Part shown: positions 4,807 through 48,053 of the stretch, in pieces | How positions within the stretch are numbered: position 1 is the stretch's first letter | How the letters are laid out: every line of letters starts with the position of its first letter | Source of the DNA: a virus | Strand: one strand, 5' to 3' | IMG/VR virus record: IMGVR_UViG_3300045988_167643 | DNA length: 64,000 nt | Notes under the pieces: model-generated | The model's database searches: none | What the model saw: the letters and a program-made list of their open reading frames with translations, nothing else | What the model was told of the DNA's origin: nothing | Made by a program: the position numbers and the translations under genes

Positions 4807-4817
4807 TGCTAACTCTA

Positions 4818-4875: not shown

Positions 4876-4968
4876 ATGCCAACACAGATTGCTGCAACAC
4901 CACAACAAGAGGTCGCAGCAACCACAGACTATCCAGTCACAGACCAGTCATCATCCGATCAGGATTAA
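4876..4968 (+). CDS. 30-aa peptide ORF (MPTQIAATPQQEVAATTDYPVTDQSSSDQD)
   Basis: Near-perfect SD AAGGAGGT lies 7 nt upstream of the ATG, in an otherwise ORF-free and visibly GC-richer spacer. It is below the 60-aa cutoff of the ORF track. Confidence 0.4.
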   Translation: MPTQIAATPQQEVAATTDYPVTDQSSSDQD

Positions 4969-5302
4969 CATACTTAATACATAACCACACAAAAGACAGT
5001 CAGGCTCACGCAGTTTGGCTTTTAACATTTCAATCTCACACAAAATCCACAAAATAGAGTTTACATATGCTTGAATTGGAAGCTTTTGGATTAGAAGCTT
5101 TAAAGGTTATCAAAGGTTACATTGTATCATGCTAGGCTTAAGGATATATGGGGTCATATAAATGATCCAAGACTATATGTGCACTCTCTTTTATGGATTT
5201 TTTGAAATGTGTTTTAGACAAGAATTATAATACTATAAAGTCACACATATGTCTATTAGAATCGTTCGACATAAATCTACATACAGTTAGTAAAAACAAA
5301 AC

Positions 5303-5350: not shown

Positions 5351-5358
5351 AGGTATAA

Positions 5359-5937: not shown

Positions 5938-5984
5938 TTAAATCACCTTATCCTCACTCCCTTTATTCATTGTGTGCTGTACTA

Positions 5985-7004: not shown

Positions 7005-7137
7005 AAGATGTGACTCCTTTCTTAGAATTGAATTTAGAGTTAAATTTTAGAAGTGATCAATTACCATATATTTCCAGTGAAATATTTAATTAAAATTGGT
7101 ATAATTTAAAAAAAATAGAAAAGGATGGTAATAAAAA

Positions 7138-7494
7138 ATGGCAACTGATATGAAAGAAAAATTTGAAATCAAGAATTATGTTAAATTGATTTGCCTAAGA
7201 CTTGATCATTATGAAAGTTTTATAGAAGATGAAGTGAATACAGACTGTATCTCAGATATTAATAATTTTATACTTAAACATAAAAATGAAGAGGGAGTTA
7301 AGATTTTAATATTTGAGATGAAAAATATGAGAATGACTACGATTTCTCAGGCGAGAGAGTATATACAACATCTACATGCATTCGATTACATTCGTGGATT
7401 GATTGAATCCGGGCATGATCTTATTACTGCAGACCAAGTTGATAAAATGTCAATAGGTGAAATAATTACATATATGCTTGATTACAAAAAATAA
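7138..7494 (+). CDS. hypothetical protein (opposite-strand moron)
   Basis: RBS AAAGGATGG lies upstream of the ATG. The gene is convergent with 7526..7957 and shares a hairpin with it. No motif was recognised. Confidence 0.5.
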   Translation: MATDMKEKFEIKNYVKLICLRLDHYESFIEDEVNTDCISDINNFILKHKNEEGVKILIFEMKNMRMTTISQAREYIQHLHAFDYIRGLIESGHDLITADQVDKMSIGEIITYMLDYKK

Positions 7495-34500: not shown

Positions 34501-37500
34501 TATATACCTTAGTAGATTTTTTTACCTTTTCAGTATTGTCATTTACGGTGTCTGTATTTTTCTTAACAGAAATTGTATTTTTATCGGTAATTGTGGAATT
34601 AGAGGGAGATGACTGATTACCTTTATTTAAACCAAAGCTATTGCCACCACCTTTTGGTGATCCGTCTAAGAATGCACTCATTCCACTATGAACCGTTCCA
34701 CCAGCAAGTGCTCTAGCATGTCCACCTCCAGACATGACACGTCCTGAATTTATAAGTTCAGATGTTTGTTTTGAATTAAAGATAATATCGCCCTTTTTTA
34801 AATTCTCAAAATGAGCACCACCAGGAATTACCATCCATTTTCCGTCACGTACAATTGACTCCGGACCATCAGGAAGCTCATTTACAAGAGCTTTTTCATT
34901 ACTTTGTAATGCTACGTTTCCATCTGCATGAGCAGGAGAGTAGTTAAGAACATTATAAGCTGTACCAGAAGCGTGTGCTACACGGAGCATAGTACCAGAA
35001 GCAAATCCACCACCAGTTCCACCAGAATTATTTTTAACATTTGTAGTTACATTTGCGGTGACATTAACTGAATGTGGTTTGTTTAATTCAGCTTGTATTG
35101 TGCTTACCATAGAAGAAATATTTGCACCAACATTGATATTCGCAGTCTTATTATTAATTTCTTCTACTGCTGCATTAGCCGCTGAAATTGCAGGTCCTTT
35201 ATTACCATCAATTTTCATTTCAGGCTTTTGATTTTCTGCGTATTTTTTAGCTTCATCAACACTTTTTTTGTATGGAGTATTATTCCCATCAATAGGTATA
35301 CTTGATTGTTCAGTTGCTTGTGATTGTAAATTCTTTGCACTGACTGAAACTGAAAGAGATGGGTTAGAAGATTGCAATTTAGAAACAGTGGAATTAATAA
35401 GACTTAAAGTCTGACGAGATGTATTGTCAAGATTTACACTAACTGTTATCTTTTGAGTATCCTTTGGAAGACCTGCAATTTTATCAAGAAATGCATTTGC
35501 ATCCTCTTCATTATCAATATTAAAATGATATGTTAACTGCTGAATACCATCATCAAAAGCACTTAAATCAAGTTTATTAATTGCATCTTGAATTCCTGCA
35601 TCATCTAGTCCTTGAATATCAAACTTCAGAGTCTTTTTAGTCTCATCATCAATGCTATCCAACTCTGCTTTTGCATCATTTACGGCTTTTTGAGCATCAG
35701 ATGTATCTAATCCAAGAGATTTCTGCTTATCTAACTCGTTAACAGCTGTTTGGTAATTTTGAATTGCCGTAATAGCATTTTGAAGATCTGCATTAACACT
35801 ATTTAACTGATCATCTGAAATATTCATTACAGCAGGAGCTTCTAACTCTTGTTTTCTTTCTATAAGAGTCTTTAAAATTGTTTCAGCAGCTGAAATTTTA
35901 TCTGTGTTGACATCAATATCAGAACTCTCTCTAAGACCTTGCAAATACTTTGAAAGATCAGATATTTCACTATCCAGATCATCCCCTGTTGCGGAAAGAT
36001 TTATTTCAACATCTGGTTCTATAGTGTCGATCTGTTCTTCCAACGAGGTAATATTACCATCAACATCAATAATAAGATGATAATCTTTTGCAAAAGAGTC
36101 TAATTGCTTTTGAAGCACTTCTTTTAACTGGACATCATCTGTATTATTGATATCATCTATCATTGTCTTGGCAACAGATTTAGCATAATCTGTCTGCTCT
36201 TTAGTATATTTACCTTTCTTATCAACAAGCTCATCCATGTTGGCATTTGCATTTTTGATCCGCTCTTCGAATTCTGCAATTTTCCTTTCAGATTCAGAGA
36301 GAGCAGTATCATAGTCCTCGGTGTTCGGATTTGCTTTTATCTGAGCAAGATGCATTTTTTCAGCTGCTAATTTACTATATAAGTCAGAAATTTTCTCCGT
36401 ACCGGCTTCTTCAGTTGTAAAGAAATCATTATAGAAACCATAGTCTTCAAGTTTTCCGAAAACAGACATAAGAGGTTCAAACCCAATTCCAAGTTTGTCT
36501 GCAGTTTCTTTAAGCTCCTCCATATTATTTCCAAGAGAATAAGTCCAGTTACCATTTTCTTGTTCGGCCAATCCAAGAGCCTGAAGATCATTAAGGAAAT
36601 TGATACATCCATCAGAACCTTCAGTAAAATATTTCTCGATCTTTGACATATTTTCTGCAAAATTTGCATAGTCATCTGATCCAGTAGGAGAGAACATTGC
36701 GGCTGTGGTCTTGAAATCATCCGTTCCAACCAAACCTTTTTCATATGCTTCTTTAGCAGTATTATACATGGAAAGCATATCATCATAGGTCGCTCCTCCA
36801 TTCTCAGTAGAAGAAGCATCTTTTGCAGCTTCATATTGTGGAGTTGGAATTTTTAAACCAGCAATTTTTTTATATGCTCCCTCAATGTCGTGAGCACCGG
36901 CAATTACATCATCGACATATTTTTGAAGAGCATCTGCGTTTGCATCTTCACCGGCATCTCGTAAAGCCTCTATAGCATCTGTAAACTGGTTAGTTACATC
37001 ACTGTCCATAGAATCCATCAGATCATCAATAGCAGAAGAGAGGTCTTCTGTATTTCCTGCATATTTTGCAAGATCTGGGAATTTATCCAGGAATGTCTTT
37101 CTTGTAGAACCAGTCATAAGACCGTTCTTTAGATCTTTTTGAGCTTGATAGAGTGACTGATATTTATCCTGATAATCTGTGAGCTGGGATTGGATTGTTT
37201 CATTATTAATAAAATCTGCTGTAGTTGGAAGAAAATTCTGAATTTCTTTTCCCCAATCGAATCCAGTAGAAGTGATATTTCCAATATTCTGTTCGACCGC
37301 TTTAAGCATTGCTTGGGCGCCTGTGTCAGATGTCATATAGCTTGAATAAGAATTGATAAATCCTTTTGCCATATTTTCTGCAACTGTCTGTGGCGCAGAG
37401 CTATAAGCATTTTTGAACAGTTTTTCTATTTCCTGCTTCGCTGTAGCAGCATCAATATCAGACAAATCAGCTTCTTTCAGAATGCTTCCTTTAAGAGCTT

Positions 37501-39685
37501 TAGCATATTCCATCTCTTCTTTAGAAGCACCAACCATCGCATCATCTATTTTTTTTATACTATCTGTTACTTTAGATACTTTGAGGTTTGAAATAGATTT
37601 CTGTAAATCGTCTGTACCAGAAGCTAGTTGTGGAAACTGTTGAATAAGGTCAGTGAGATCTGAATCTTTAAACTCGCCTGTTTTAAGCTTTGTAAGAGTA
37701 TCTGATAAAGAAGAAATATCTGACTGCAAAGAATCAATAGAAGATGAGATTTCATTATCAGAATCGCCAAGAATTGATGAGAGAGTAGGACCATCTGTGG
37801 ATTCTGCTACCGTTTTCTTATATCTTTCAATGGCAGAAACTAATCCATCTGTGCCTTTCTCAATATCAACTGAACCATTATCAATTAACTGTGCAGCAAT
37901 TGACAGATCGCCTGTCTGCATCTGGTCAATAAAATCACTGGCATTTGGAAAATCTGCATATGCTTCTTTAAGACGTTCTGCGTTATCTTCCATGTCCTCA
38001 ATAGATGAATCAATACCATAAGCATTCTTGAACCGCTCCTGGAGTTCTTTCTTTTCCTCTGTGTCATTTCCAAAAGCATCTTTAAATGCTTCATCAACTT
38101 GCGACCTGTATTCATCAATAGTTAATTTAGAAGGATCAATTTGTAGTGCTTTTGCAAGACTTTCTTGTACATCCGTACTAAACTGAGACATTGGCCCAAG
38201 AAATTCACCATACAGAAAATCAAGTACCTGTCCTTTATATTCACCATCAGGATCATTTAATGCAGTTAAATCAAGATTTGAAATATTAGCCAGAAATGCA
38301 CTCTGAAGACTATCATCAAGCTCATTAAATGATTTTGATGTCTGAAGATAATTTCCAAGTGATTGAGCCATGCTACGCCATTGATCTTCAATCATTAAGT
38401 CATAGGAATTAATTTCGCTCTGAAGTTGACTTCTCTGAGATTCCAATGTTAAATAATAGGATTCCATACCAGCTGTAATCTGTTCATTCATCCTATCTAT
38501 TTCTTGTTTTGACTTGTCAGCAAGACCTTCAGCATAGAAATTCCAGATGCTTCCGTCATCACCAGTATTCTCTTTGTATAATCCGTTCTCTTTTAGAACA
38601 TCAGTAATAACATTTTCTTTATCGCCATACAAATTCTGAACTTCAAAATTGTTACTTCCATATGTTAAAATACTACGTTTGTTCTCAGAAATATCAATAT
38701 CTAGTTGAGCTAGTTCATCACGTTTTTTCTGAATATCTTCCGCATATTGACTTGTCTGTGTAACAACACCATCATATGTTGCTTGTAGATTTTTCCCCAT
38801 ATCAACATTTGCAGAAGAAACTTGTGCCTCATATAAGTTACGAATACTATCAGCAGCCTTATCTGCATTGGAAGCAAGGTTTAATACAGCATTTCCCTGA
38901 CTATCGTAACCTGCTACCAGACCAGGAAACTGAGAGGCAAGCTTACTACTGAGATCAATATATTGCTGATACTCGTCTGTAGATAATGATACATTCTCGT
39001 TTGTATTCTGATTTACTCCCTTACGAAGCTCTACATATTTTTCGGCAACTTGATCGATTGCATCACCGGTATTTTTTATTTGTTCTGTCTGATCACCGAA
39101 TGAAGATCCAAGGTCCATGATGGACTGCTTACCTTCTTCGAAGCTTTTGAATGTGCTGTCAATAGAATCCTTTGCTTCCTGTCCAGCTTTGATGATATTT
39201 TCGCTACGATGTCTATAATCATCTATGGCTTCAAATACTTTGCCAATAGCCCAGGATGCAGCCATAGCTATTGCCATATTGCCAAGAGTTCCAACAAATG
39301 TCTTTGCGACATTACCTGCGGTTTTTAAAGCAGCGCCAAATTTTGTTGTACCTTGTATAACTGTTTGCTGAGATTGAGCAAAATTGGCTAAATTTTGAGA
39401 TCCTAATTCTGTATTAGAATTATATTCAATTAATTTATTATTGCCTTCATCTAACTCATTAGCCCATGTTGAAGCCAGATTTTTATATTCATCACTTGAT
39501 AAATCAGCTTCTTTTGGAATATCGTTAATTAATCTTTTAAAATATTCTTGCTCATTATTGGTTGGATTATAATTTTTAACAACATCTTGCTTCTTTGTAA
39601 AAAAGTCTTTAATACTTTCCCAAAATTCAGATAAATTCTTTCCATTATTAAATGTACCCTCAGTTTTATCGTAGTTAAAAATCAA
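31577..39685 (-). CDS. tape-measure protein, distal 2702-aa segment (no credible own start)
   Basis: The frame opens only 5 codons upstream. The sole start candidate is TTG with no SD (AAATAGATTATTTCAATTTG). It contains a post-core hydrophobic segment (FGAALKTAGNVAKTFVGTLGNMAIAMAASWAIG), kilobases of coiled coil, and two ...NE(L/N)...GPE/GME-type motifs (ALVNELPDGPESIV; RVNENGMESVL). Confidence 0.85.
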   Translation of the reverse strand: MIFNYDKTEGTFNNGKNLSEFWESIKDFFTKKQDVVKNYNPTNNEQEYFKRLINDIPKEADLSSDEYKNLASTWANELDEGNNKLIEYNSNTELGSQNLANFAQSQQTVIQGTTKFGAALKTAGNVAKTFVGTLGNMAIAMAASWAIGKVFEAIDDYRHRSENIIKAGQEAKDSIDSTFKSFEEGKQSIMDLGSSFGDQTEQIKNTGDAIDQVAEKYVELRKGVNQNTNENVSLSTDEYQQYIDLSSKLASQFPGLVAGYDSQGNAVLNLASNADKAADSIRNLYEAQVSSANVDMGKNLQATYDGVVTQTSQYAEDIQKKRDELAQLDIDISENKRSILTYGSNNFEVQNLYGDKENVITDVLKENGLYKENTGDDGSIWNFYAEGLADKSKQEIDRMNEQITAGMESYYLTLESQRSQLQSEINSYDLMIEDQWRSMAQSLGNYLQTSKSFNELDDSLQSAFLANISNLDLTALNDPDGEYKGQVLDFLYGEFLGPMSQFSTDVQESLAKALQIDPSKLTIDEYRSQVDEAFKDAFGNDTEEKKELQERFKNAYGIDSSIEDMEDNAERLKEAYADFPNASDFIDQMQTGDLSIAAQLIDNGSVDIEKGTDGLVSAIERYKKTVAESTDGPTLSSILGDSDNEISSSIDSLQSDISSLSDTLTKLKTGEFKDSDLTDLIQQFPQLASGTDDLQKSISNLKVSKVTDSIKKIDDAMVGASKEEMEYAKALKGSILKEADLSDIDAATAKQEIEKLFKNAYSSAPQTVAENMAKGFINSYSSYMTSDTGAQAMLKAVEQNIGNITSTGFDWGKEIQNFLPTTADFINNETIQSQLTDYQDKYQSLYQAQKDLKNGLMTGSTRKTFLDKFPDLAKYAGNTEDLSSAIDDLMDSMDSDVTNQFTDAIEALRDAGEDANADALQKYVDDVIAGAHDIEGAYKKIAGLKIPTPQYEAAKDASSTENGGATYDDMLSMYNTAKEAYEKGLVGTDDFKTTAAMFSPTGSDDYANFAENMSKIEKYFTEGSDGCINFLNDLQALGLAEQENGNWTYSLGNNMEELKETADKLGIGFEPLMSVFGKLEDYGFYNDFFTTEEAGTEKISDLYSKLAAEKMHLAQIKANPNTEDYDTALSESERKIAEFEERIKNANANMDELVDKKGKYTKEQTDYAKSVAKTMIDDINNTDDVQLKEVLQKQLDSFAKDYHLIIDVDGNITSLEEQIDTIEPDVEINLSATGDDLDSEISDLSKYLQGLRESSDIDVNTDKISAAETILKTLIERKQELEAPAVMNISDDQLNSVNADLQNAITAIQNYQTAVNELDKQKSLGLDTSDAQKAVNDAKAELDSIDDETKKTLKFDIQGLDDAGIQDAINKLDLSAFDDGIQQLTYHFNIDNEEDANAFLDKIAGLPKDTQKITVSVNLDNTSRQTLSLINSTVSKLQSSNPSLSVSVSAKNLQSQATEQSSIPIDGNNTPYKKSVDEAKKYAENQKPEMKIDGNKGPAISAANAAVEEINNKTANINVGANISSMVSTIQAELNKPHSVNVTANVTTNVKNNSGGTGGGFASGTMLRVAHASGTAYNVLNYSPAHADGNVALQSNEKALVNELPDGPESIVRDGKWMVIPGGAHFENLKKGDIIFNSKQTSELINSGRVMSGGGHARALAGGTVHSGMSAFLDGSPKGGGNSFGLNKGNQSSPSNSTITDKNTISVKKNTDTVNDNTEKVKKSTKVYNWVETRIKHWSDQVQKIADKITDYIKKSLKTSLLKQQIRKMNYEIGSNQKGAKTYMKKANSIANEYTYYNSDGEEIKTNVPKKYQKLVQKGAYRIEDMDTSTDQGKALAEAIDQYKTYYDKAQDCKQAVVDLKKEQMELFEQWANMPTETAEQKLERLQNGFNGLNATQSRLSAVQTGGSTQKAIADAATASYESAQVVTEKAQSNLDTATAKADKATTAVNRKKKALLKSKGLTNEQKKAIKSGKTIDTSKITNKTTKKRAEEYNSAVKNKKKADSKKKTAQTKFNTANKNSSSLKTDAETAIAGYQEGNELSYMDSLTDQNVTQTKQAADINNKAWEETKKNLNAQEKAKKQADDKVSKKAKAIKKKFGSKLSDNQKKKLAAGKEINVDKIKDKSLKKALTAYNKYVTTAAETEQKLNIVTDAESTAAANAAESQTEAAKATVEAIQSKFDNAKTYYEGLLGYQEKYNEMEEANIDLYNAHGNYERSSDYEIKISNTESLRNIAQDKVDELEKRLQEGVDNGTIVEGSQEWINMKSEIIEAKKAVTDYDTSIENLKQQQIGVYYEEQFDRAIEKIDQFKDRLDTLNEIISDDMKVDKNTGLLTELGATSVMLNRNQFSANQKEIQKLLEKENDVKKRYANGEDMSSEFGEKTYDEYIKDIQSKYNSLISSNSSLQNDMLSLVKNQAQAELDALNKVISKRKEALSAKKDYYDYDKTLKDKTKDIQILERQAAALQGSTNAEDKARLAKIQEQLSDAREDLSDTMTDHAFSMQSDALDKLSSDMSDDFDKWSNDISSNVEKMSKAINEAVSNSALSNAQVLNNLSTILKNVGLTDEQVSSTLSGLTGYASGTDYVPKSGMYRVNENGMESVLSRKYGTLTFLNQGDKIFTADFTKRLIDNAGIATQSSQPQFGEMYKELMNAITNTNNQSYEHSTVYNIVVNEATDANAVGDIVVKKIDAYEKKRVRDFKSLR
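39664..39678. repeat. 15-nt inverted-repeat arm (TTTTATCGTAGTTAA) inside first codons of distal TMP segment
   Basis: It is the perfect reverse complement of 47220..47234. The RNA duplex is extendable to 17 bp with one G-U. Confidence 0.9.
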
Positions 39686-39692
39686 ATTGAAA
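39685..39692. repeat. 8-bp direct repeat AATTGAAA (island left junction)
   Basis: Identical to 47240..47247. Both copies read xT-TTC-AAT-Tx (Phe-Asn) in the same codon phase on the minus strand. Confidence 0.85.
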
Positions 39693-39747
39693 TAATCTAT
39701 TTATAATGTTATACTTGCAATATAAAATTATAAATTGGAGGGTGATT

Positions 39748-40275
39748 ATGAAGATTTATTGCTGTCGTAATTGTATGGAGAAAAACAGAAGCAAGATTAA
39801 AAGCGACAAAGATTATTTTAACTCATTACTTAAATATAAAACCTTTGAAGCAGAAAAAGAATATTTTGTAGGATTTGGACTAGAAAACAAAGTTAAAGAC
39901 GGTAAATGTATATTTTGCAACTCTCCAGTAGAACTTTTAAATATTGAGGATGGTGAATTGGCAAAAATATCACACTTTGGATCTCCAAATCCAGATTATG
40001 TTCTTGCTATGAATAAACTTAAAGGCGATGATATTATTTCATTTACTTCAAAATATAATGAATTAATTGAGATTCAAAATCAAAGAAAAGCAATGAATTT
40101 AGCGCAACAACAGTCCGAGCAACAAAATATAAACCAAGTACGTTGTCCTAAATGTGGATCTACCCAGATCACCACAGGACAGAGAGGATACAGTTTATTC
40201 TCTGGCTTTTTAGGTAGCAGCAAGACCGTTAATCGTTGTGCGGCTTGTGGACATACTTGGAAGCCTGGAAGGTGA
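39748..40275 (+). CDS. double zinc-ribbon protein (Zn-ribbon cassette copy 1 in frame)
   Basis: RBS GGAGGGTGATTATG. The N-terminus has CCRNC...CIFC. The C-terminus is [40 protein letters not shown]. Confidence 0.75.
40135..40275 (+). repeat. 141-nt Zn-ribbon cassette, copy 1 (in frame)
   Basis: It has the same length and the same [13 protein letters not shown]...NRCAxCG pattern as 41186..41326, 43280..43420 and 44153..44293. Confidence 0.9.
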
Positions 40276-40485
40276 CTATAAATAGTTCTTTCGATCATCA
40301 AGAATATCAAACAGTTCTTGAATGTTTTTTTCAAATTCTATAAAGCTTAGATACTTTTGATGATTGAATATTCTATAGTATGCTTTTTGGATTTTAAATT
40401 TTATATTGCGAATTGCCATTTTTGCATCCAAATAAAAAACATTTACTCTTAATTTTAGAAGTAATAAAGTTTTATTTTGTTTCAT
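40276..40485 (-). CDS. small protein, family C (~69 aa), divergent partner of HExxH gene
   Basis: RBS GAAAGGA. It shares K(K/A)YY(R/K)IF(N/D)xxKY...EK(D/N)(I/M)Q(E/D)...D(D/E)R with 42104..42316 and 42344..42550. Confidence 0.65.
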   Translation of the reverse strand: MKQNKTLLLLKLRVNVFYLDAKMAIRNIKFKIQKAYYRIFNHQKYLSFIEFEKNIQELFDILDDRKNYL

Positions 40486-40518
40486 ATAAATAAAATCCTT
40501 TCGTATAAGTAAATAAAT

Positions 40519-41202
40519 ATGAATAAAGAATATATAGAAAATTTATTTAAAGAATACAATAATAATTATTTTAAAATACCAGAAATACAGCAATATATCG
40601 AAATACAAGATAATTATGTAGCTGGTAAATTTAATAGTGTAGATTTATACAATCAAATATATACATTAGAAATAAGTAATAATTTAAATGAGTCTGATGG
40701 AAGCAAAGCAATATTATTCCATGAATTTACTCATGTATATGATTCGTTACAATTTCTAAAATATCCATTTGAAGATTACAAAAAATTAATGTATGTATAT
40801 TCGGAAGTACATGCTTCTGAAGTAGAAATGGATGTGTATTTAAAAATATCAAACTTTCATTATGAAAAATATATGCAATTACAATTAAGAGACCTAATAG
40901 AAAGCTTTATTTTGCCAGATGGTCCTATTGTCAAAGGACAGCTAGGATTTAATGAAAGACTTCTATATTATTACATTGGTTATCTTGTATCATTAAATAA
41001 TCATAATATTAAGTATGAATATAAATATGATTATATTAATGAAGATTTTCAAAATCTGTTTATGGAAATTACAGATTACTTTATTCAAAACAATACATAT
41101 AATTATGATATCTTATTAACTTACTATGATAGATTGAGTAAACTTGTAAAAGATACATTAATAAAACATCAAAAAAAATACAAATCAAGTTCGTTGCCCT
41201 AA
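40519..41202 (+). CDS. HExxH metallopeptidase-like protein, copy 1
   Basis: Contains [12 protein letters not shown] (HExxH) and [11 protein letters not shown]. It is roughly half-identical by eye to 42580..43266. It ends 17 nt into the +1-frame Zn-ribbon cassette. Confidence 0.65.
41171..41178 (+). repeat. A8 homopolymer at HExxH/Zn-ribbon junction
   Basis: The sequence reads CATC-AAAAAAAA-TAC. Loss of one A fuses the HExxH ORF to the Zn-ribbon (…[16 protein letters not shown]…). Confidence 0.9.
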
Positions 41203-41326
41203 ATGCGGTTCCACACAAATCACCACAGGTCAACGTGGATACTCATTATTCTCTGGTTTCCTTGGCTCAAATAAGACAGTCAACAGATGTGCGAATTGCG
41301 GATATTCTTGGAAACCTGGAAAATAA
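41186..41326 (+). other. Zn-ribbon cassette copy 2, +1 frame relative to upstream ORF, no own start codon
   Basis: It encodes [46 protein letters not shown]. Against copy 1, 22 codons differ synonymously and 5 non-synonymously. Its frame opens at 41165 with no ATG, GTG or TTG. Confidence 0.8.
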
Positions 41327-41338
41327 GGAGAGTATAAT

Positions 41339-41890
41339 ATGAGTATTATACTGGCTGCTATTTCAAAAAATAATGATATTGCTGTATGCTCCGATGGAAG
41401 AGCAACTGATAGTAATGGAAAAGTTGTAGGAGAGTATGAGCAAAAAATATATAAAATTAATAAGAAATGTATAATTGGTGGGACTGGAACTGCTGCTAAA
41501 TATCTAAAATTAAAAGATTATGTTAAAGATAATTTTTCATCAGACCAATACAATGTGAATCAAATCCACGACTCATGCATTAAGTATTTAGAAAAAAATA
41601 AATCTGACGAATCAGATGTACATATTCTTATTACTGGGTATGATGAAGAATGTAATCCACACTTGTATGTAATATCTGTATCCAGTACTATTTCATCTCG
41701 CGATTACAATGATATAAAAAGAACTATATTAGGCGATGTATTTTGCAATTATATACTTAATGAAACCGAAGATGACATCAATAAAATTTTAGATTCCATG
41801 GAAGAATGCATTATTAATAGAGCAATGTTTCATTTTTTAATTAACAAAAATGTTAGTAAATTGCATCTTTTGGCAAAGGATGTTCGATGA
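41339..41890 (+). CDS. HslV/CodW-like Ntn-hydrolase homologue, copy 2
   Basis: RBS AAGGAGAG. The N-terminus MSIILAAISKNNDIAVCSDGRATDSNGKVVGEYEQKIYKINKKCIIGGTGTA follows the HslV pattern. It is a paralogue of 30570..31112. Confidence 0.55.
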   Translation: MSIILAAISKNNDIAVCSDGRATDSNGKVVGEYEQKIYKINKKCIIGGTGTAAKYLKLKDYVKDNFSSDQYNVNQIHDSCIKYLEKNKSDESDVHILITGYDEECNPHLYVISVSSTISSRDYNDIKRTILGDVFCNYILNETEDDINKILDSMEECIINRAMFHFLINKNVSKLHLLAKDVR

Positions 41891-42053
41891 GTCTTTTTTC
41901 AGGAACAAAAAATGATTCAATAGTTTCTTTTACTACAATTGGTTTAAGTGGAATATATTTATTACAAGTGACTGATTCTTGTCCATCGTTATCAGATACT
42001 GATATTTTGTGCGAATCAATAAATATGTCACAATCAAAAATTTTAGCATGCAT
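41853..42053 (-). CDS. small protein, family B, convergent and overlapping with Ntn-hydrolase gene
   Basis: The start was refined to MHAKIFDCDIFIDSHK (RBS AGAAGGT). It overlaps 41339..41890 by 38 nt. Its 5' 53 nt are about 92% identical to 44883..44935. Confidence 0.6.
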   Translation of the reverse strand: MHAKIFDCDIFIDSHKISVSDNDGQESVTCNKYIPLKPIVVKETIESFFVPEKRLIEHPLPKDAIY

Positions 42054-42103
42054 TGTCATACCTTCTTTCTATATATTGTAGAATAAGTGGAACAAGTAAA
42101 TAA

Positions 42104-42316
42104 CTATAATCTATTCATACGTTCATCGTATTCATTAAATATTTCTTTGATGTCTTTTTCGAATGCACAAAGTTTTTCGTATTTGGAATAATTGAAAATT
42201 TTATAGTATGCCTTTTTTACCTGTAAAATGAAATTTTTCTTTTTCATATTTAAAGAAAGTAATAATGCGTCTATTTTTAAGAGTATTAATGAATGCTGTT
42301 TTATTTGTTTTTTCAT
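42104..42316 (-). CDS. small protein, family C paralogue
   Basis: The start was refined to MKKQIKQ (RBS AAAGGA). It carries the family C motif KKAYYKIFNYSKY...EKDIKEIF...DER. Confidence 0.6.
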   Translation of the reverse strand: MKKQIKQHSLILLKIDALLLSLNMKKKNFILQVKKAYYKIFNYSKYEKLCAFEKDIKEIFNEYDERMNRL

Positions 42317-42343
42317 AGAACATCCTTTCATAAGAAAAGTAAT

Positions 42344-42550
42344 TTACACCCATTTCATTCTGTCGTCAATAGCATCCAGGACATCTTGCATATCTTTTTC
42401 TATCTGCAGGAGGTCCTGGTACTTTTGATTATCAAAAATGCGATAATACTTTTTTTGAATTGCAAATTTTATATCTAATTTTAGATTTTTTAATTTTATG
42501 AACAGTATATCACGTTTTAATCTAATAATTAGCATTTTGTTTTTTATCAT
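42344..42550 (-). CDS. small protein, family C paralogue, divergent partner of HExxH gene
   Basis: RBS GAAAGGAATTATTATG. Only 29 nt separate it from the divergent 42580 start. Confidence 0.65.
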   Translation of the reverse strand: MIKNKMLIIRLKRDILFIKLKNLKLDIKFAIQKKYYRIFDNQKYQDLLQIEKDMQDVLDAIDDRMKWV

Positions 42551-42579
42551 AATAATTCCTTTCTATTGCAGGAGATAAA

Positions 42580-43266
42580 ATGGACAAAGAGTATCTTGAT
42601 AAAATATTTAAGGAATATAATGAGTTATATTATGAAATTCCAGAAATACAAGAATATATTGAAGTTGACAAAGGAGATTGTGCAGCCGCACAATTCAATA
42701 CATTGGAATTGTATAATCAAAAATATATACTAAAAGTCAACAAGCAATTAGATAAATCAAAAATATACAAAGGAATTTTCTTTCACGAGTTCACACATGT
42801 ATATGATTCTACTCAGTTATTAAATTATCCGCTTGAAAATTTTATTAAATTAATGTACATATATTCTGAAGTTCACGCTTCAGAAGTTGAAATGGATATA
42901 CATTTAAAAATAGAAAATTTCTCATATAAAAAATATGTAGATAAAGGAATAGTAAATTTAACTGAGAGTTTTATATTACCAAATAATCCTATTTTAAAAG
43001 GTGAGGTATATTGTGACGAAAGACTTTTATATTATTGTATTGGATATTTGACATCACTTAAAAAGCATAATATCGAATATGTTTATAGTTATAAGTATGT
43101 ACCAGATGTGTTTCGTTCATTATTTATAGAGATAACGGAATATTTTTTGTCAACAACAAAATATAATTATAATGTATTGCTTAATTATCAAATTAAATTA
43201 CATGATTTAGTCAAGACTACAATAAAGGAACATATAGAAAAATATAATAAACCTAATACAAATTAA
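42580..43266 (+). CDS. HExxH metallopeptidase-like protein, copy 2
   Basis: RBS GCAGGAGATAAAATG. Contains [12 protein letters not shown] and [11 protein letters not shown]. Confidence 0.65.
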   Translation: MDKEYLDKIFKEYNELYYEIPEIQEYIEVDKGDCAAAQFNTLELYNQKYILKVNKQLDKSKIYKGIFFHEFTHVYDSTQLLNYPLENFIKLMYIYSEVHASEVEMDIHLKIENFSYKKYVDKGIVNLTESFILPNNPILKGEVYCDERLLYYCIGYLTSLKKHNIEYVYSYKYVPDVFRSLFIEITEYFLSTTKYNYNVLLNYQIKLHDLVKTTIKEHIEKYNKPNTN

Positions 43267-43279
43267 TACAAAAACCAAT

Positions 43280-43420
43280 ACTGTTCACTGTCCTCGCTGC
43301 GGTAGCACACAGATCACTACAGGGCAGAGAGGTTATTCCTTTTTAACTGGTTTCTTAGGTTCCAATAAAGCTGTTAATAGATGCGCAAAATGTGGACATA
43401 CTTTGGAACCGAGAGGGTAA
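43280..43420 (+). other. Zn-ribbon cassette copy 3, +1 frame relative to upstream ORF, no own start codon
   Basis: It encodes [46 protein letters not shown]. Its frame is open from 43238 without a start codon. The junction contains the tandem AATACAAA-tt-AATACAAA. Confidence 0.75.
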
Positions 43421-43421
43421 T

Positions 43422-43691
43422 TTATTTAATACCATGTTCTTCCAAAAACTCATCAGCTATTTGACTAGAAACTTGTTTTATAATTTGAGTAAGATTACCA
43501 TGAACGTCAATTTCCGGCATCTTACCAGTTGTTTCGAATTTAATAATGTCATCAATTGACATATTCTTAAAATGATTTCGCACTAATGTAAATGTGGTTT
43601 CAATATCACCTTCATCAGTACAATTATTTTCGTATAACAATTTAATAATTTTTGTTGCAATATTTTCTGTCTCAGAAATTGACCACAACAT
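43422..43691 (-). CDS. hypothetical 89-aa acidic protein, divergent partner of 43723..44154
   Basis: RBS AGAAAGGTCGTG. Its start lies 31 nt from the divergent gene's start. Confidence 0.6.
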   Translation of the reverse strand: MLWSISETENIATKIIKLLYENNCTDEGDIETTFTLVRNHFKNMSIDDIIKFETTGKMPEIDVHGNLTQIIKQVSSQIADEFLEEHGIK

Positions 43692-43722
43692 ATTTTCACG
43701 ACCTTTCTATGGAGGATTGAAT

Positions 43723-44154
43723 ATGATATTAAACTATGATTGTTTTAGAGATGTACTCTTATATATTGAAGAACAAGATAATATGAAGCTTAATGGAGAT
43801 TTCAAGCGGATTATGTTAAAAGATATAAAGGATCACTTTTCAGGCAAATACACTGAAGAGGATGTACAATATTGTGTGAAAAACTTATTTGACGGAAGAT
43901 TCTTAGAAGGATTGTATTCTATAGATGATAACTATAAATATGAAAACTGTAAAATTTATGATGTTACATTCGAAGGACATAAATTAGCAGAATCAATTAG
44001 ACCTGACTCTATATGGAGGAAGAGTAAAGCTAAATTAAAATCTGTAGGTATTTCTTCTATAAATATGATCTCAGCAGTATGTGTAGAAGTTGCTAAAGTA
44101 GCTGTTACTGATCCTAAATTTATTACCGATATTGCCAATGGAATATTTAAATAA
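43723..44154 (+). CDS. DUF2513-like (winged-helix-like) protein
   Basis: RBS GGAGGATTGAATATG. The N-terminus MILNYDCFRDVLLYIEEQ...F resembles the remembered DUF2513 family. The track start at 43594 lies inside the divergent gene. Confidence 0.5.
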   Translation: MILNYDCFRDVLLYIEEQDNMKLNGDFKRIMLKDIKDHFSGKYTEEDVQYCVKNLFDGRFLEGLYSIDDNYKYENCKIYDVTFEGHKLAESIRPDSIWRKSKAKLKSVGISSINMISAVCVEVAKVAVTDPKFITDIANGIFK

Positions 44155-44293
44155 AGTTCACTGTCCTCGCTGTGGCTCAACGCAAATTACCACAGGTCAA
44201 ACCTTGCAAAGAGCATTGTTTAGCTTAATGTATAATCAGATTACTGTCAATCGATGCGCAAATTGTGGGTGCACTTGGAGACAAGGAATATAA
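44138..44293 (+). CDS. Zn-ribbon cassette copy 4 as possible 51-aa stand-alone ORF (+1 frame, overlaps upstream stop)
   Basis: An ATG at 44138 lies in the cassette frame but has no SD. It encodes [51 protein letters not shown]. The central loop has diverged. Confidence 0.45.
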   Translation: MEYLNKVHCPRCGSTQITTGQTLQRALFSLMYNQITVNRCANCGCTWRQGI

Positions 44294-44307
44294 GGAGATT
44301 ATATAAT

Positions 44308-44466
44308 ATGGAAGAAAACATATTTGATAAGTTTAAAAATGTGGTTCGTAAGCCGAAACCAGAACCAACTAAGCCAAAGGCAACTAAAATTTCTGATATT
44401 AATTTAGAAAAGAATAAACGAGAAATTTTTACTCTCCATGACGAAAAAGATAAAAACAAGAAGTAA
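44308..44466 (+). CDS. 52-aa Lys/Pro-rich peptide
   Basis: RBS TAAGGAGATTATATAATATG. The sequence is highly basic and low-complexity. Confidence 0.5.
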   Translation: MEENIFDKFKNVVRKPKPEPTKPKATKISDINLEKNKREIFTLHDEKDKNKK

Positions 44467-44607
44467 TACATTTTTTTAAAAAATCTATTGTTTTTATATA
44501 TGGCGTAAAGAAAAGTTCAATAGCATGGGGAAATGGATCTGGAACTTCTCTAAACAATTCTATATCTTTTATTTTTAAATCTTCTGTGTCATTAGGAGGT
44601 GTATTTA

Positions 44608-44808
44608 GTGAACTCAAATTTCGATTCAAAAGAATCATTCCTTTCTTATAAGTTAAATATTTTTAAAGAATTGTATAATGATGAATGTGAAAGAAGAAAC
44701 ATTGCTTCACAAAAAATTTCAAGAATTATTCCATTAATTGTGGCAATGTTTGGTGGTGACACCAATATTTTTCAAAAGCTTTTTCTGGCAACAGATAATC
44801 CTCTATGA
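44608..44808 (+). CDS. 66-aa ORF, possibly a truncated N-terminal fragment
   Basis: A GTG lies 8 nt after AGGAGG. It ends inside the convergent gene 44726..44935, in the position the Ntn-hydrolase gene occupies in the paralogous module. Confidence 0.35.
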   Translation: MNSNFDSKESFLSYKLNIFKELYNDECERRNIASQKISRIIPLIVAMFGGDTNIFQKLFLATDNPL

Positions 44809-44935
44809 CTTCCTTGACAAAGAAAGTAGGCAAGGGAGTATTAAAAGATTTTTCACTAGATCCACCACGAGAATCGTTTATTGATATTTTGTGTGAATCA
44901 ATAAATATGTCGCAATCAAAAATTTTTACATGCAT
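44726..44935 (-). CDS. small protein, family B paralogue
   Basis: The start was refined to MHVKIFDCDIFIDSHK (RBS GAAGGTGAAG). Confidence 0.6.
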   Translation of the reverse strand: MHVKIFDCDIFIDSHKISINDSRGGSSEKSFNTPLPTFFVKEVIEDYLLPEKAFEKYWCHHQTLPQLME

Positions 44936-44983
44936 AAAAATCTTCACCTTCTTTTTTTATTTAATTAATAGACCAAGAGAGTA

Positions 44984-45331
44984 TTAGTGCTCTTGGTCTG
45001 ATTCTTCATGCTTGGTCCATGCTAATGTATAAGTTTTTAACCAAAAGTAATCTTTACCGAAATCACCATCAGACCGATATATATCAAATTCATTTATATT
45101 ATAAATACCTAATGTCTCATACATGGCATCACGGTATGTCTTATAAGATCCAAGAACCTTATTATCATCTTTTCTTATTACTAGATAACAATCTCCGTAT
45201 TTTTCAAATAATTCTTTCTCGTGGTCTGTAAAATAGCAGTGGGCTTTACCATCTCGATCTGTTGACATATTAGTATAATTAAAGAAATCTTTATCTTCAA
45301 ATATAACAGTTCCTCTTTGTATTAATTTCAT
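44984..45331 (-). CDS. small protein, family A paralogue
   Basis: RBS AAAGGAGT. FEKYGDCYLVIRKDDNKVLGSYKTYRDAMYETL aligns with the family A members. Confidence 0.65.
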   Translation of the reverse strand: MKLIQRGTVIFEDKDFFNYTNMSTDRDGKAHCYFTDHEKELFEKYGDCYLVIRKDDNKVLGSYKTYRDAMYETLGIYNINEFDIYRSDGDFGKDYFWLKTYTLAWTKHEESDQEH

Positions 45332-45375
45332 TTAATAATACTCCTTTTTAATCATAATAATAGACCAGGAGAGTG

Positions 45376-45846
45376 TTAATTCTCCTGGTCTAAATTATCA
45401 TATTCATTTAAGAAATTTGCTGTTCCAAAAGATGGGATTCTAAATGAAAAACTTGTTTTTCCATTTAAATTTGATACTGCAAAATCACCTTTTGAAATAA
45501 TATCCATACCAATAATAATATCAAAAACATCATGTTTTTCAATTTTTAATACTCGCAAGTTATTAAAAACAAAATCGTCTCTAAACATTAAATCAATTGA
45601 ATAAATATTTGTTAATTTTGACTCACGATGACCTCCAGTATAGAAATTTGATTTTCCAGTTGAAGTAAGATTATATTTTTCCACTATATTGCTTGTTATA
45701 CATGAGACAGAAGCACCTGTGTCCCAAATACAAATAAAGCGATTTTTATCAATTAAATCATCTTTCTCTTTTCCTACATAAACATAGGAAGTAAGTTGAT
45801 TCATTATCTTATTTGAACTATATGTAAGAACTCGTATTTTATCCAT
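45376..45846 (-). CDS. retropepsin-like aspartic protease, copy 2
   Basis: Contains IWDTGASVSCIT, IIGMDIISKGDFAVSN and FSFRIPS. Its start lies 4 nt after the upstream family A gene's stop. Confidence 0.75.
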   Translation of the reverse strand: MDKIRVLTYSSNKIMNQLTSYVYVGKEKDDLIDKNRFICIWDTGASVSCITSNIVEKYNLTSTGKSNFYTGGHRESKLTNIYSIDLMFRDDFVFNNLRVLKIEKHDVFDIIIGMDIISKGDFAVSNLNGKTSFSFRIPSFGTANFLNEYDNLDQEN

Positions 45847-45849
45847 ATC

Positions 45850-46140
45850 TTATTCACTTATAGAAATCCATTTATATTCTGGTATGCGAACATATTTTCT
45901 ATTAAAAACACCATCACAATGATATATATTAAATTCACCTACATCATAATAGAAAAGTGTTTCTCTTAATGCTTCTCTATATGTTTTATATGATCCAATG
46001 ATAATATTATCTAATTTTCTAATAGACAGATAACATTCTCCATATTTTTTATATAATTCTTCATGATGATAATAAAACCAATCTGTAGGATGATTTGGAA
46101 TTTCTACAATTTCCCCTTCATAATAATGTATTTTTCCCAT
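45850..46140 (-). CDS. small protein, family A paralogue
   Basis: The start was refined to MGKIHYYEG after AAGAGGTG. Contains YKKYGECYLSIRKLDNIIIGSYKTYREALRETL. Confidence 0.65.
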   Translation of the reverse strand: MGKIHYYEGEIVEIPNHPTDWFYYHHEELYKKYGECYLSIRKLDNIIIGSYKTYREALRETLFYYDVGEFNIYHCDGVFNRKYVRIPEYKWISISE

Positions 46141-46187
46141 ATTAAATTTCACCTCTTATCATATCATATAATGGATTAATTTCAATC

Positions 46188-46224
46188 TATATAAATAAAA
46201 GCACCACGTTTGCAAGCCGTGGTG
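46188..46224 (-). terminator. rho-independent terminator ending the ORF-poor RNA region
   Basis: On the minus strand, CACCACG-gcttgcaaa-CGTGGTG is followed by CTTTTATTTAT. Confidence 0.7.
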
Positions 46225-46681
46225 AGTGTGTGCAGTTAGTGCATTTCAGGTAGTAGGAGAGTAGTAACCTCACGGTTCTATCCATACTATTCGATCCATC
46301 ATGCTACCCAGGCTTTCCCTGGTTGGACTGTATATTGTACTATATGTTGTAACGCCACACATAATACGCCTTGTCAGCCTCTCGCACGTTAACTGTAAAA
46401 CTACACTTTTACATGAAAACACATATGTTCTGGATTTACAAAAATGGACAATTATACTACAATCGAAGTCAGATAAACTTGTGATCACAGTTCTACATTG
46501 TGATTCGTTGCACGACAGTATATCTGACAATCGTCATGTAGTATTGAATTAATGGTACGCAATTTGTACCAGAAATGAGATTATCTAAAATGAAGCATTC
46601 TAAATATTATATTCATTTCTATGGGATTCTCCCAACATCAAATCTCTTTCTTGATACTTTCGTACAGGAAGGAGGTGAGAT

Positions 46682-46855
46682 ATGGAAGATGTATTTCTAT
46701 TCGTTTTAACTCTTGTAGGATTATTAATCCTATGGTCGTTAATCCGCAGAATACCATCTAAGAACATGAAAAACTTTCACATCCATTTTGGATTTTTGAA
46801 AGGATTTGACATGTCTGGAGAATTCTATAAGGATGACACCAAAAATAATAAATAG
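46682..46855 (+). CDS. 57-aa hydrophobic-N-terminus peptide (type-I-toxin-like)
   Basis: Strong RBS GGAAGGAGGTGAGATATG. It encodes MEDVFLFVLTLVGLLILWSLIRRIPSK..., a TM helix followed by a charged tail. Its own terminator lies downstream. It is below the ORF-track cutoff. Confidence 0.55.
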   Translation: MEDVFLFVLTLVGLLILWSLIRRIPSKNMKNFHIHFGFLKGFDMSGEFYKDDTKNNK

Positions 46856-46892
46856 TTTAGTTCATATTTTTGTAATCTCCTTTTGTCATTTA

Positions 46893-46945
46893 AGAGAGTG
46901 GAGAGTTGTTAGCGCAACTTTCTGCTCTCTATTTCTTTCTTTCTT
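46893..46945 (+). terminator. rho-independent terminator of the small peptide gene
   Basis: AGAGAG-tg-GAGAGTTG-ttagcg-CAACTTTC-tg-CTCTCT is followed by ATTTCTTTCTTTCTT. Confidence 0.7.
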
Positions 46946-47219
46946 CCTGTTATAATTGCGTTTTATTCGTGAATTTATCATCCACTTTTGTAAATTTAAA
47001 CATATGTGTTTGCTAACGTGTCGGAACTACCATCTTCAATATATCCCTTTCATTCATTTTCAGAACTAAGGTACCACAGTGATGTGGATTACGGCTTCCT
47101 CCGATATTCGGCTTTATAGCTCTAAGGCTAAAGGTCTGTCAATAGGTGTCGAATCACCATCTTGAACAAGTTCTATACTAACTGTCGCGATTATGACAGC
47201 AGCATATCAAATGGGCATC

Positions 47220-47234
47220 TTAACTACGATAAAA
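47220..47234. repeat. 15-nt inverted-repeat arm (TTAACTACGATAAAA) at island right end
   Basis: It is the reverse complement of 39664..39678. It supplies the codons FYRS* that terminate the proximal TMP segment. Confidence 0.9.
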
Positions 47235-48053
47235 TTTTGAATTGAAACTAGCTTTATGGTTTATGTTAAGCTGTTTACCCAGACCTGCTTGTGAAAGTTT
47301 AAATCCTGCGAATCCTCCAATTGCTGTTGAGAGCAGTGGAAGTTTATCCAGGATCTGAGTTACGATGTTAAGAAAGGCGGTTGCTGTATCTATTACGCCT
47401 TTAAACATATCTGAGTTGATAGTTACTGTTGCAAGCTCTTGGAGCTGTGTTTGGAGCTTTGTGATATGAGCTTCTAACGAAGATAAATACGTCTCATTTT
47501 CACGATCTGCCGAGCCTTTCGCATTTTTTGATGACTCGATTGCTTCCCTTAAAATATCAGGTGACTGCAATATACTAGCAGCTGTATTTGCGCGGTTTTT
47601 GCCGGCAATTGTTTCAAGCAAAAGATTTACATTGTTACTTTTGGTCTTTTTATCGGTTTCTTCGATCTCATTATAGATATCTGCTATATCCTGTAATACA
47701 CTTGCCGTTGAACGGTAGTTCCCGTTATTATCAAGAATATCTATACCTTTAAAACCATTAGAAGCGACTTTTGTTGCGCTCATAATTACGTCTCTAAGCT
47801 TAGAAACAGTTGTTACAACACCATCTGTCTCTTCGCCAAGTTCTTGCAATTGCTGAACGGCAACGCTTGTTCCTGTTAGACGGAGAGCAATCGTTCTCAT
47901 TGCGGCACCAACGGATTCTGGGTCCTGCACAACCTGGTTGCCTGCCGTAATTAATCCTATACTTTCGTCTATATTATTACCTGCTGTTTTAAGAGCAGAT
48001 GCTGATCTTTGTAATGCTGATGCTAACCCATCGGTGGAGATGGAAAAATTATT
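47220..48053 (-). CDS. tape-measure protein, middle segment (exon 2 of intron-split TP901-type core)
   Basis: It begins NNFSISTDGLASALQRSASALKTAGNNIDESIGLITAGNQVVQDPESVGAAMRTIALRLTG, the hallmark TP901-family core block as remembered from Firmicutes phage TMPs. The track codons MVSRACLESNSL upstream belong to the intron 3' end. Confidence 0.85.
   Translation of the reverse strand, partial: NNFSISTDGLASALQRSASALKTAGNNIDESIGLITAGNQVVQDPESVGAAMRTIALRLTGTSVAVQQLQELGEETDGVVTTVSKLRDVIMSATKVASNGFKGIDILDNNGNYRSTASVLQDIADIYNEIEETDKKTKSNNVNLLLETIAGKNRANTAASILQSPDILREAIESSKNAKGSADRENETYLSSLEAHITKLQTQLQELATVTINSDMFKGVIDTATAFLNIVTQILDKLPLLSTAIGGFAGFKLSQAGLGKQLNINHKASFNSKFYRS
47240..47247. repeat. 8-bp direct repeat AATTGAAA (island right junction)
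   Basis: Identical to 39685..39692 and in the same codon phase. Confidence 0.85.

Follow-up and report, generated by a model that had tools for sequence, protein, structure and literature searches.

How does a bacterial virus produce a tape-measure protein (TMP) from a gene that is interrupted by several kilobases of other genes? The question is raised by a 64,000-nt window of IMG/VR virus record IMGVR_UViG_3300045988_167643, the whole stretch of DNA analysed here, in which the TMP gene on the minus strand is listed as three open reading frame (ORF) pieces (51319-49571, 48089-47220 and 39685-31577), with a multi-gene island between the last two. An earlier reading made from the letters of the window (hereafter the sequence-only reading) had seen in the island either an oversized exon pairing of an intron or the scar of an integration event. 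From the comparison of the island with its relatives, we consider it to be probably a single very large group I-type self-splicing intron in the TMP gene of a large human-gut siphophage. As in group I introns, a P1 helix with a U.G wobble, a terminal G, a P10 pairing and a joined ORF collinear with uninterrupted homologues were all found.

Relatives were searched for in IMG/VR, GTDB genomes and metagenomes. The same arrangement was shared by 14 viral contigs, whose lengths run from 15 to 222 kb and in ten cases from 113 to 222 kb, and by about 18 human-gut metagenome contigs, and in every relative the TMP gene was interrupted at the same spot, by 2.4-7.9 kb.

Proposed intron borders and the joined reading frame

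The exons and the island, the latter with corrected borders, are as follows.

49628-51319, minus strand: TMP exon 1, 564 codons, joined in frame to exons 2 and 3
47277-48053, minus strand: TMP exon 2, 259 codons, ending in ...GCA GGU CUG GGU, joined in frame
39683-47276, minus strand: proposed intron 2 (the island), 7,594 nt
31577-39682, minus strand: TMP exon 3, 2,701 codons and a stop; its bases +4 to +19 (39679-39664) are the P10 target

The borders of the island were placed at 47277|47276 (exon ...CUG GGU|) and at 39683|39682 (G|AUU). Joining 51319-49628, 48053-47277 and 39682-31577 gave one ORF of 3,524 amino acids, which reads ...SQAGLG|IFNYDKTEG... across the second junction. The ligated product is accordingly predicted to carry CUGGGU|AUUUUUAAC in RNA, GCAGGUCUGGGU|AUUUUUAACUACGAUAAAA as cDNA and SQAGLGIFNYDK as peptide. 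Both TMP pieces that flank the island were collinear with uninterrupted TMPs: a search with the junction-spanning protein showed distant phage TMPs (phiCD211, TR-TP1 and others) to be continuous across the junction, and in a full HMMER scan of the ligated sequence uninterrupted homologues of 34-41% identity aligned ungapped through AGLG|IFNYDK. At this point P0130 reads ..MQKSGKGIFNYDKITK.. (QKSGKG-IFNYDK), P0127 reads ..LQKTGYGLLNYDKTTG.. (KTGYG-LLNYDK) and P0134 reads ..MQKNGMGLFSFDKKNG.., likewise aligned without a gap. Furthermore, the nominal TTG or ATG start of exon 3 was preceded by a Shine-Dalgarno sequence in none of the versions, while most other genes of the window have one.

The sequence-only reading had set the borders by an 8-bp direct repeat, AATTGAAA. 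Both copies do lie where it placed them, at the two ends of the island, yet little meaning can be attached to them, with 11 copies in the window against 15 expected. The repeat was not conserved at the 3' junctions of relatives, which read for example ...AAAAACAATGATC..., ...AAAAACAATG|ATC... or ...TTCAATTG|ATC..., and its left copy is the -35 box of an antisense cargo promoter. The in-phase deletion derived from it works in this window only: in relatives, indels between CAGCTTAAC and the 15-mer described below change the frame. In a frame analysis of four types of 5' junction, the two junctions then proposed, FN|LIFNYDK (by the 8-bp repeat) and FN|IFNYDK (after U47240), fall out of frame in the common relatives of the L004/L005/L009/L042/L072 type, and they would add 12-13 residues (KQLNINHKASFN, plus L in FN|LIF) that are absent from uninterrupted homologues. 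The 5' splice site proposed here is situated 37 nt further upstream (47277|47276). Between the invariant CAGGTCTGGGTAAACAGCTTAAC and the 15-mer, one type of relative has lost 7 nt, another has lost 1 nt and gained 2, and L007 shows a larger deletion of 12 + 10 alignment gap columns. Since versions differing in frame share identical 3' junctions, the stretch after GTTTCAAT is not coding exon; frame-breaking indels behind a 5' splice site are expected for the loop of P1 and impossible for a coding exon.

It should be added that the spliced tape measure (window 31577-51319) would have 3,524 amino acids, which implies a very long tail, and that related contigs of up to 155-222 kb point to a large gut siphophage lineage. 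One carrier of the interrupted TMP gene is a contig of a Clostridia metagenome-assembled genome (L033).

Proposed pairings between the exons and the guide

The elements next to the two splice sites are listed below.

47276-47281, minus strand: 5' strand of P1, exon UGGGU and first intron base A, pairing with 47217-47212
47235-47275, minus strand: L1 loop of P1, length-variable and indel-rich, holding the right-hand AATTGAAA copy
47219-47234, minus strand: P10 strand, the guide for the 3' exon, UUUUAUCGUAGUUAAG; exact complement of 39664-39678, invariant in all versions
47212-47217, minus strand: UGCCCA, the internal guide that pairs with the 5' exon, separated by one base from the P10 strand upstream of it
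39683-39699, minus strand: AU-rich linker with the end CAAU(U)(U)G, in which G39683 is the candidate for the terminal (omega) G

Candidate P1 helices were defined as those having the U.G pair plus at least four Watson-Crick pairs, and 157 nt upstream were scanned for them. UGGGU|A/UGCCCA was the sole such helix and was in the right phase; shuffled sequences yielded one in 1.6% of cases. The last exon base, U47277, stands opposite G47216 of the guide UGCCCA in a U.G wobble at a codon boundary, and all six pairs, U47277.G47216 included, were kept in 10 of 10 distinct versions. The exon-end sequence CAGGTCTGGGT was invariant in all versions, and P1 was part of the minimum-energy fold. At the other end, G39683, which the sequence-only reading had named as a possible last intron base, was invariant among 10 distinct 3' ends and preceded by CAAU(U)(U). 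Such ...AAU(U)G ends are typical of phage IA2 introns, and those of the td and Twort introns are of the same type.

The 15-mer TTTTATCGTAGTTAA at 39664-39678 (plus strand) recurs as its exact reverse complement at 47220-47234, and the window holds no third match, even at a tolerance of two mismatches. The sequence-only reading was right about this pair: the inner copy begins 5 nt inside the island end as drawn at that time, and the complementarity was conserved in every relative and throughout the homologous islands. As RNA (47234-47219 with 39679-39664), the duplex has 15 Watson-Crick pairs and reaches 17 contiguous pairs with wobble, as had been stated; its energy is -19.8 kcal/mol, against -7.3 +/- 2.5 kcal/mol for shuffled partners. 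Both strands were invariant across all related loci. Moreover, codons 2-6 of exon 3 (FNYDK) were each represented by a single codon in 11 versions, in contrast to later conserved residues, which use 2-8, and to the next ~400 amino acids of exon 3, only ~48% identical in L002, L003, L007, L011, L013 and L014. The frozen synonymous sites of FNYDK therefore place the nucleotide sequence itself under selection.

The role of an oversized P10 or internal guide, suggested before, fits the position of this strand directly 5' of the P1 guide UGCCCA, as the canonical order of a group I internal guide is the P10 strand followed by the P1 strand (PMC4227781, introduction). The long P10 helix lies one base off the register contiguous with P1; the in-register alternative consists of five pairs, AUCUU/AAGAU, and both pairings are possible. 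In addition, CUUAAC (47270-47265) can pair with GUUAAG (47224-47219) through invariant pairs, which could mask the guide before the first splicing step. A weaker second block of complementarity, AUUUGAUA, did not survive the comparison, being replaced by AUGUUUUA in L007; a P1 formed by AUUUGAUA with UUUCAAUU was rejected on the same grounds.

Conserved RNA of the putative ribozyme module and the 3' hairpin

On the sense strand, a structured RNA occupies the first ~1.08 kb of the intron. Identity among its 19 distinct versions is 92-100%, apart from one lineage (L007/L050) with ~78% over the module. Its elements and the hairpin at the far end of the intron are given here.

47175-47205, minus strand: P2 hairpin; in L007/L072 both partners differ at 5 of the 11 pairs, and these bases still pair
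47020-47174, minus strand: putative catalytic core with P3, P4/P5, two P7.1/P7.2-like hairpins, a P8 region and an S-like motif
47174-47167 with 47069-47062, minus strand: P3; tolerates wobble changes only
47165-47139, minus strand: P4/P5 hairpin; a P5 pair switches from G-C to A-U
47037-47020, minus strand: S-like motif GAAGAUGGUAGUUCCGAC, resembling GAAGAUCUAGUCCGAAC of intron 1 and the classical 'S' element
46417-47011, minus strand: long-range helices (47011-46977 with 46452-46417) closing off a peripheral insert that holds an antisense ORF
46200-46640, minus strand: conserved structured 3' domain of the module, ending in hairpin CACCACG-GCUUGCAAA-CGUGGUG (46224-46202)
39700-39734, minus strand: 3' hairpin; the outer stem (8-10 bp) covaries, and the inner loop, ..UGCAAGUAUA.., is conserved

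Across the 55 pairs proposed for the 5' core, 97.8% of the cells were paired and six pairs were changed on both sides, a result reached by none of 500 shuffles. The core also holds an R-like UUAGAGCUAUAAAG; the R-like and S-like motifs resemble those of intron 1 and of an intron in the relative L006. The positions of the two small core hairpins correspond to those of P7.1 and P7.2 in IA2 introns, a P3 pseudoknot is a further candidate element, and L007 has an insertion at the tip of the proposed P8. For the long-range helices, RNAalifold predicted 33 pairs with three unpaired cells across the 19 versions, and the changes of L007 in them are swaps between G.U and G-C, fitting the sense strand only. 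Several helices of the 3' domain show compensatory changes, such as CCAGG/CCUGG to CUGGG/CCCAG; no Rfam match was obtained for this domain. Its ~440 conserved nucleotides are far beyond the need of a peripheral P9 extension.

A distance of 17 nt separates the 3' hairpin from the end of the intron, and six pairs of the hairpin are changed on both sides. One of its pairs is A-U, G-C or G.U on the TMP-sense strand, where the opposite strand would have an A.C mismatch, and such sense-only G.U pairs occur in three versions. The loop of this hairpin doubles as the -10 region of the antisense Zn-ribbon promoter. A kissing loop between GCUUGCAAA and UGCAAG of the 3' hairpin was considered and left as speculation, since both are invariant and the antisense -10 box also explains the conservation.

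True matches to the core motif, sought in the three collections named above, all fell in this single TMP site, and nhmmer searches over the window and the collected relatives revealed no further ribozyme copies with a different guide. Neither tRNA nor tmRNA was found in the scan, and neither the region nor the module had near or distant DNA similarity to phages in GenBank.

Proposed splicing and alternative explanations

The following order of events would account for these features. Late transcription would run through the TMP gene, and the first ~1.08 kb of the intron would fold as a ribozyme, with catalysis by a group I core. The guide UGCCCA (47217-47212) would pair with the exon end UGGGU, presenting U47277 in the U.G wobble at the 5' splice site. 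The adjacent 16-nt UUUUAUCGUAGUUAAG (47234-47219) would pair with bases +4 to +19 of exon 3, and this P10 of 15-17 bp would capture a 3' splice site that is 2.4-7.9 kb distant in the various relatives, the cargo being read through in cis. Finally, the terminal G39683 would be used in exon ligation to give the single TMP of 3,524 amino acids. The stretch between the module and the 3' hairpin would be a tolerated slot, in which accessory cassettes accumulate and are exchanged. A long P10 clamp makes sense here because splicing of IStrons (group I introns fused to insertion sequences, discussed below) drops sharply with cargo length.

Several observations weigh against this interpretation. The assignment of P6 and P7 is ambiguous, and L007 is devoid of the G of the best P7 candidate; P1, P10, P3 and P7 are invariant and hence receive no support from covariation. 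No intron-less allele was found among the 14 IMG/VR contigs, the ~18 metagenome contigs and 215 protein matches, unlike the case of typical mobile introns. IStron splicing falls steeply as cargo lengthens (bioRxiv 10.1101/2023.11.20.567912), hairpins resembling terminators, at 46224-46191 and 45392-45361, stand in the cargo on its sense strand, and transcription has to pass through convergent antisense genes. The codon preceding exon 3 is always ATG or TTG, compatible with a start codon. The phiCD211 TMP has ~14 additional residues at the junction, and its alignment slightly preferred the longer product of the sequence-only reading (89 versus 85.5 bits); this preference was set aside because closer uninterrupted homologues have no gap at GxG|IFNYDK. 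Lastly, Rfam gave no group I match for the window, the island or the module, at the gathering threshold or at E<=10. As controls, intron 1 and a ~350-nt ORF-less L006 intron with textbook R and S elements were equally missed, and this negative therefore carries little weight.

Three other explanations deserve attention. Splicing might proceed in trans: a transcript of exon 2 and the module would stop near 46200, and a separate exon 3 transcript would be joined to it by the 15-17-bp pairing. In most versions the module is followed by a hairpin with CUUUUAUUUAU (a U-tract), splicing in cis would need a far shorter P10 than this pairing, and cis-splicing of IStrons is depressed by cargo length (bioRxiv 10.1101/2023.11.20.567912). 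On the other hand, L007, L033 and L072 do not possess the U-tract, and in the minimal islands (L013, L006) the stretch from the module to exon 3 holds no sense-strand gene, promoter matches that are weak and at chance level (14 found, 13.1 expected) and no terminators in the scan. The 3' hairpin, moreover, is under selection on the sense strand, so sense transcripts cross the end of the cargo, and we regard splicing in trans as unlikely. Little probability is likewise given to two separate proteins, an N-terminal part stopping in the 15-mer and a C-terminal part starting from the TTG/ATG at 39685, with the conserved RNA regulating or coupling the two; the RNA could in that case, for example, place the restart codon next to the stop codon. 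The split of the TMP in every relative, the constant ATG or TTG before IFNYDK and an N-terminal part whose stop, whichever of the three frames is read, lies in the 15-mer or shortly before it agree with this, and variable tails would be tolerated. It has to contend, though, with restart codons that have no Shine-Dalgarno sequence in any version and with homologues that are continuous exactly at GxG|IFNYDK, and it leaves unexplained the in-phase U.G guide pairing and the invariant terminal G, as well as the frozen synonymous sites together with ~1 kb of covarying RNA.

The possibility that the island is a DNA element, either excised from the gene in the manner of skin and nifD or inserted as a transposon, was also contained in the sequence-only reading, which took the repeats for att-like or target-site-duplication scars. 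Large size, own promoters, variable cargo and, in this window, the 8-bp direct and 15-bp inverted repeats at the apparent ends would suit such an element. Its absence of enzymes does not: domain searches of the island recovered no recognisable integrase, transposase or endonuclease, as the sequence-only reading had noted, and the cargo ORFs gave no recombinase, integrase, transposase, TnpB or nuclease domain in Pfam, PHROGs, NCBIfam and PADLOC. The 8-bp repeat occurs at chance frequency and is not conserved, and the borders defined by homology, GGT|AAA and TTG|ATT, share no repeat. No empty site in related genomes, which had been proposed as a check, and no excised junction were found in IMG/VR, where three possible empty-site junctions were absent from 2.9 million viral contigs, and the island has a single orientation in all assemblies. 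A DNA element is thus highly improbable.

Some further candidates were rejected. Recombination or splicing within a (C/T)TTAAC repeat (...KQLN|YDK...) would be in frame everywhere, but homologues keep IFNYDK after GxG, and no DNA junction of this type was found in IMG/VR. Inversion between the 15-mers would not restore the gene, and one orientation is seen in all assemblies. A group II intron is contradicted by the absence of a GUGYG start and of domains V/VI and by pairing with the wrong exon; a bridge-RNA or omega-RNA guide for a nuclease or recombinase, by the absence of such a protein from the minimal islands; and a homing-endonuclease mobile intron, by the absence of a nuclease domain and of an intron-less allele among the sequences found.

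Other introns of the tape-measure gene

The first interruption of the gene is of a more familiar kind.

48054-49627, minus strand: intron 1, ordinary group I-type, 1,574 nt, with P1 UAGGU/GCCUA including U.G, P10 AUUAU/AUAAU and last base G48054
49496-48300, minus strand: intron 1 ORF, 398 amino acids, with zinc fingers and a weak match to a Vsr-like endonuclease (Pfam/NCBIfam)

Its border reads ...VNQVG|, and an intron-less allele, P0092, reads ..KINQVGNNFSISTDG.. (KINQVG|NNFSISTDG). With such an allele known for intron 1, splicing can be taken as normal business in this TMP family. Exon 2 of the L006 TMP has further introns, at ~4725-5073 and ~5358-7197, that are missing from the window; one of them, of ~350 nt and ORF-less, shows the R element (AACGACUG) and the S element (AUAUACAGUCUG) in textbook form. 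In this phage group, the TMP gene is a hotspot for introns.

Comparison with known systems

The closest counterparts of the island are IStrons (CdISt1, BcISt1, CboIStron), in which a group I intron is fused to an IS200/IS605 or IS607 insertion sequence (IS) element (PMC4227781; bioRxiv 10.1101/2023.11.20.567912) and which, like the island, belong to clostridial-type hosts and their phages. IStrons have an IA2-type ribozyme at the 5' end and keep their bulk between the P9 region and a remote 3' splice site (PMC4227781), a layout matched by the island with its putative ribozyme; both have a stem or hairpin near the 3' end, and in both insertion into a coding gene is made harmless by splicing, which for the island is a prediction. 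Unlike IStrons, the island contained no detectable tnpA, tnpB or omega-RNA, occupies one fixed site instead of existing in many copies, carries up to 6.8 kb of unrelated and mostly antisense accessory genes, pairs with its 3' exon over 15-17 bp and has a ~1.08-kb module with an antisense ORF. As the defining IS is missing and the site is single and fixed, we did not file the island as an IStron. It should also be added that the exon ends in TGGG followed by T (47277-47281), and that TGGG is reported for C. botulinum and B. cereus as the target or transposon-adjacent motif (TAM) of their group B IStrons (PMC4227781; bioRxiv 10.1101/2023.11.20.567912). The ribozyme may, on this account, descend from one of IStron type.

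Phage group I introns with homing endonuclease genes (T4 td, nrdB and sunY, Twort, SPO1 and intron 1 of the window) share with the island the U.G of P1, P10, the terminal G and a location in an essential late structural gene, and intron 1 shares its S-like motif GAAGAU..UAGU.CCGA.C. These introns are usually 0.25-1.6 kb long, with one sense-strand ORF in a loop and polymorphism of presence and absence, whereas the island has 2.4-7.9 kb, no endonuclease found, a multi-gene antisense cargo and a place in every relative found. Engineered trans-splicing group I ribozymes gain efficiency and specificity with a remote exon from a long antisense arm by the internal guide; such arms target the 5' exon substrate, while the natural arm of the island targets the 3' exon of the same gene, and we know of no natural bacterial or phage case of a guide-adjacent antisense arm of this kind. 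Skin of B. subtilis (in sigK) and the nifD element of Anabaena are, like the island, multi-kilobase, gene-carrying interruptions of essential genes; both encode a recombinase and have direct repeats at their borders, neither of which was found in the island.

Giant size, a mostly antisense accessory cargo and an exon clamp of 15-17 bp distinguish this probable group I-type intron. If the predicted splicing takes place, this would be by far the largest group I intron of a bacterial virus known to us, IStrons having ~2 kb, and the first group I payload made of variable ordinary accessory genes instead of a homing endonuclease or a transposase; the exon clamp beside the internal guide would be a natural answer to the cargo-length problem, of interest for engineered ribozymes. 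There is also a bearing on annotation: hundreds of human-gut phage contigs currently have their TMP called as two or three proteins, and the ~1-kb structured RNA of the module is in no RNA family library.

Going further, and as a tentative and rather doubtful extension, the group I ribozyme fixed in an essential structural gene might act as a 'safe harbour' for exchangeable cassettes, the long P10 clamp permitting up to 7.9 kb to be excised; the large conserved 3' domain would perhaps also help to splice out long cargo. With cargo antisense to the late transcript, transcription of the intron could then shut the cargo off late in infection. Should this be so, no larger group I intron would be known from bacteria or their phages, and the island would represent a novel means by which phages carry morons.

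Cargo genes and antisense ORFs

The contents of the island outside the ribozyme elements, and the antisense ORF within the module, are the following.

39735-46199, both strands: variable cargo, between the module and the 3' hairpin
45850-46152, 44984-45331 and 43422-43691, minus strand: sense-strand cargo genes
45376-45846, minus strand (sense): Asp-protease-like cargo gene
39748-40275, plus strand (antisense): Zn-ribbon cargo gene
40519-41202 and 42580-43266, plus strand (antisense): HEFTH paralogue cargo genes
41339-41890, plus strand (antisense): proteasome/HslV-like cargo gene
43723-44154, plus strand (antisense): DUF2513 cargo gene
46682-46855, plus strand: antisense membrane-type ORF of 57 amino acids, with a strong Shine-Dalgarno sequence, GGAGG, and a 17-bp terminator at 46893-46930 (plus strand)

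The swappable cargo amounts to 1.3-6.8 kb and is mostly antisense with own promoters; across 15 islands, 2.4-7.9 kb in size, its cassettes occur in varied combinations. Any functions of the cargo are predictions. Always present are the Zn-ribbon gene adjoining the 3' end and the 57-amino-acid antisense ORF; the smallest islands consist of the module, the proteasome/HslV-like gene and the Zn-ribbon gene only. The product of the 57-amino-acid ORF has a hydrophobic N-terminal helix and a charged tail, and the frame is preserved at 40% identity in L007. The peptide could be type I toxin-like or holin-like, with an mRNA antisense to the intron RNA, and under the safe-harbour proposal it could serve as a type I toxin-like retention device.

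A zinc-ribbon module of ~45 amino acids with two CxxC motifs (..NRCxxCGxxW..) occurs in four copies on the plus strand, at 40121-40270, 41172-41321, 43266-43415 and 44139-44288. The first copy forms the C-terminus of the first cargo gene, whose frame it shares; copies 2-4 are in the +1 frame and overlap, or lie shortly behind, the stops of the two HEFTH paralogues and of the DUF2513 gene, one of them after an A8 run. Frameshifting, separate mini-genes or decayed fusions could each explain the +1-frame copies. Hairpin terminator cassettes (AATAGACCAnGAGAG...CTCnTGGTCT) follow two of the sense-strand cargo genes (44950-45009 and 45342-45401), a 57-nt repeat of 91% identity is found in two intergenic spots (41997-42053 and 44879-44935), and the small proteins encoded at 44984-45331 and 45850-46152 are paralogous. 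The repeated terminators, the 57-nt repeat and the paralogous proteins suggest duplication and shuffling of cassettes within the cargo.

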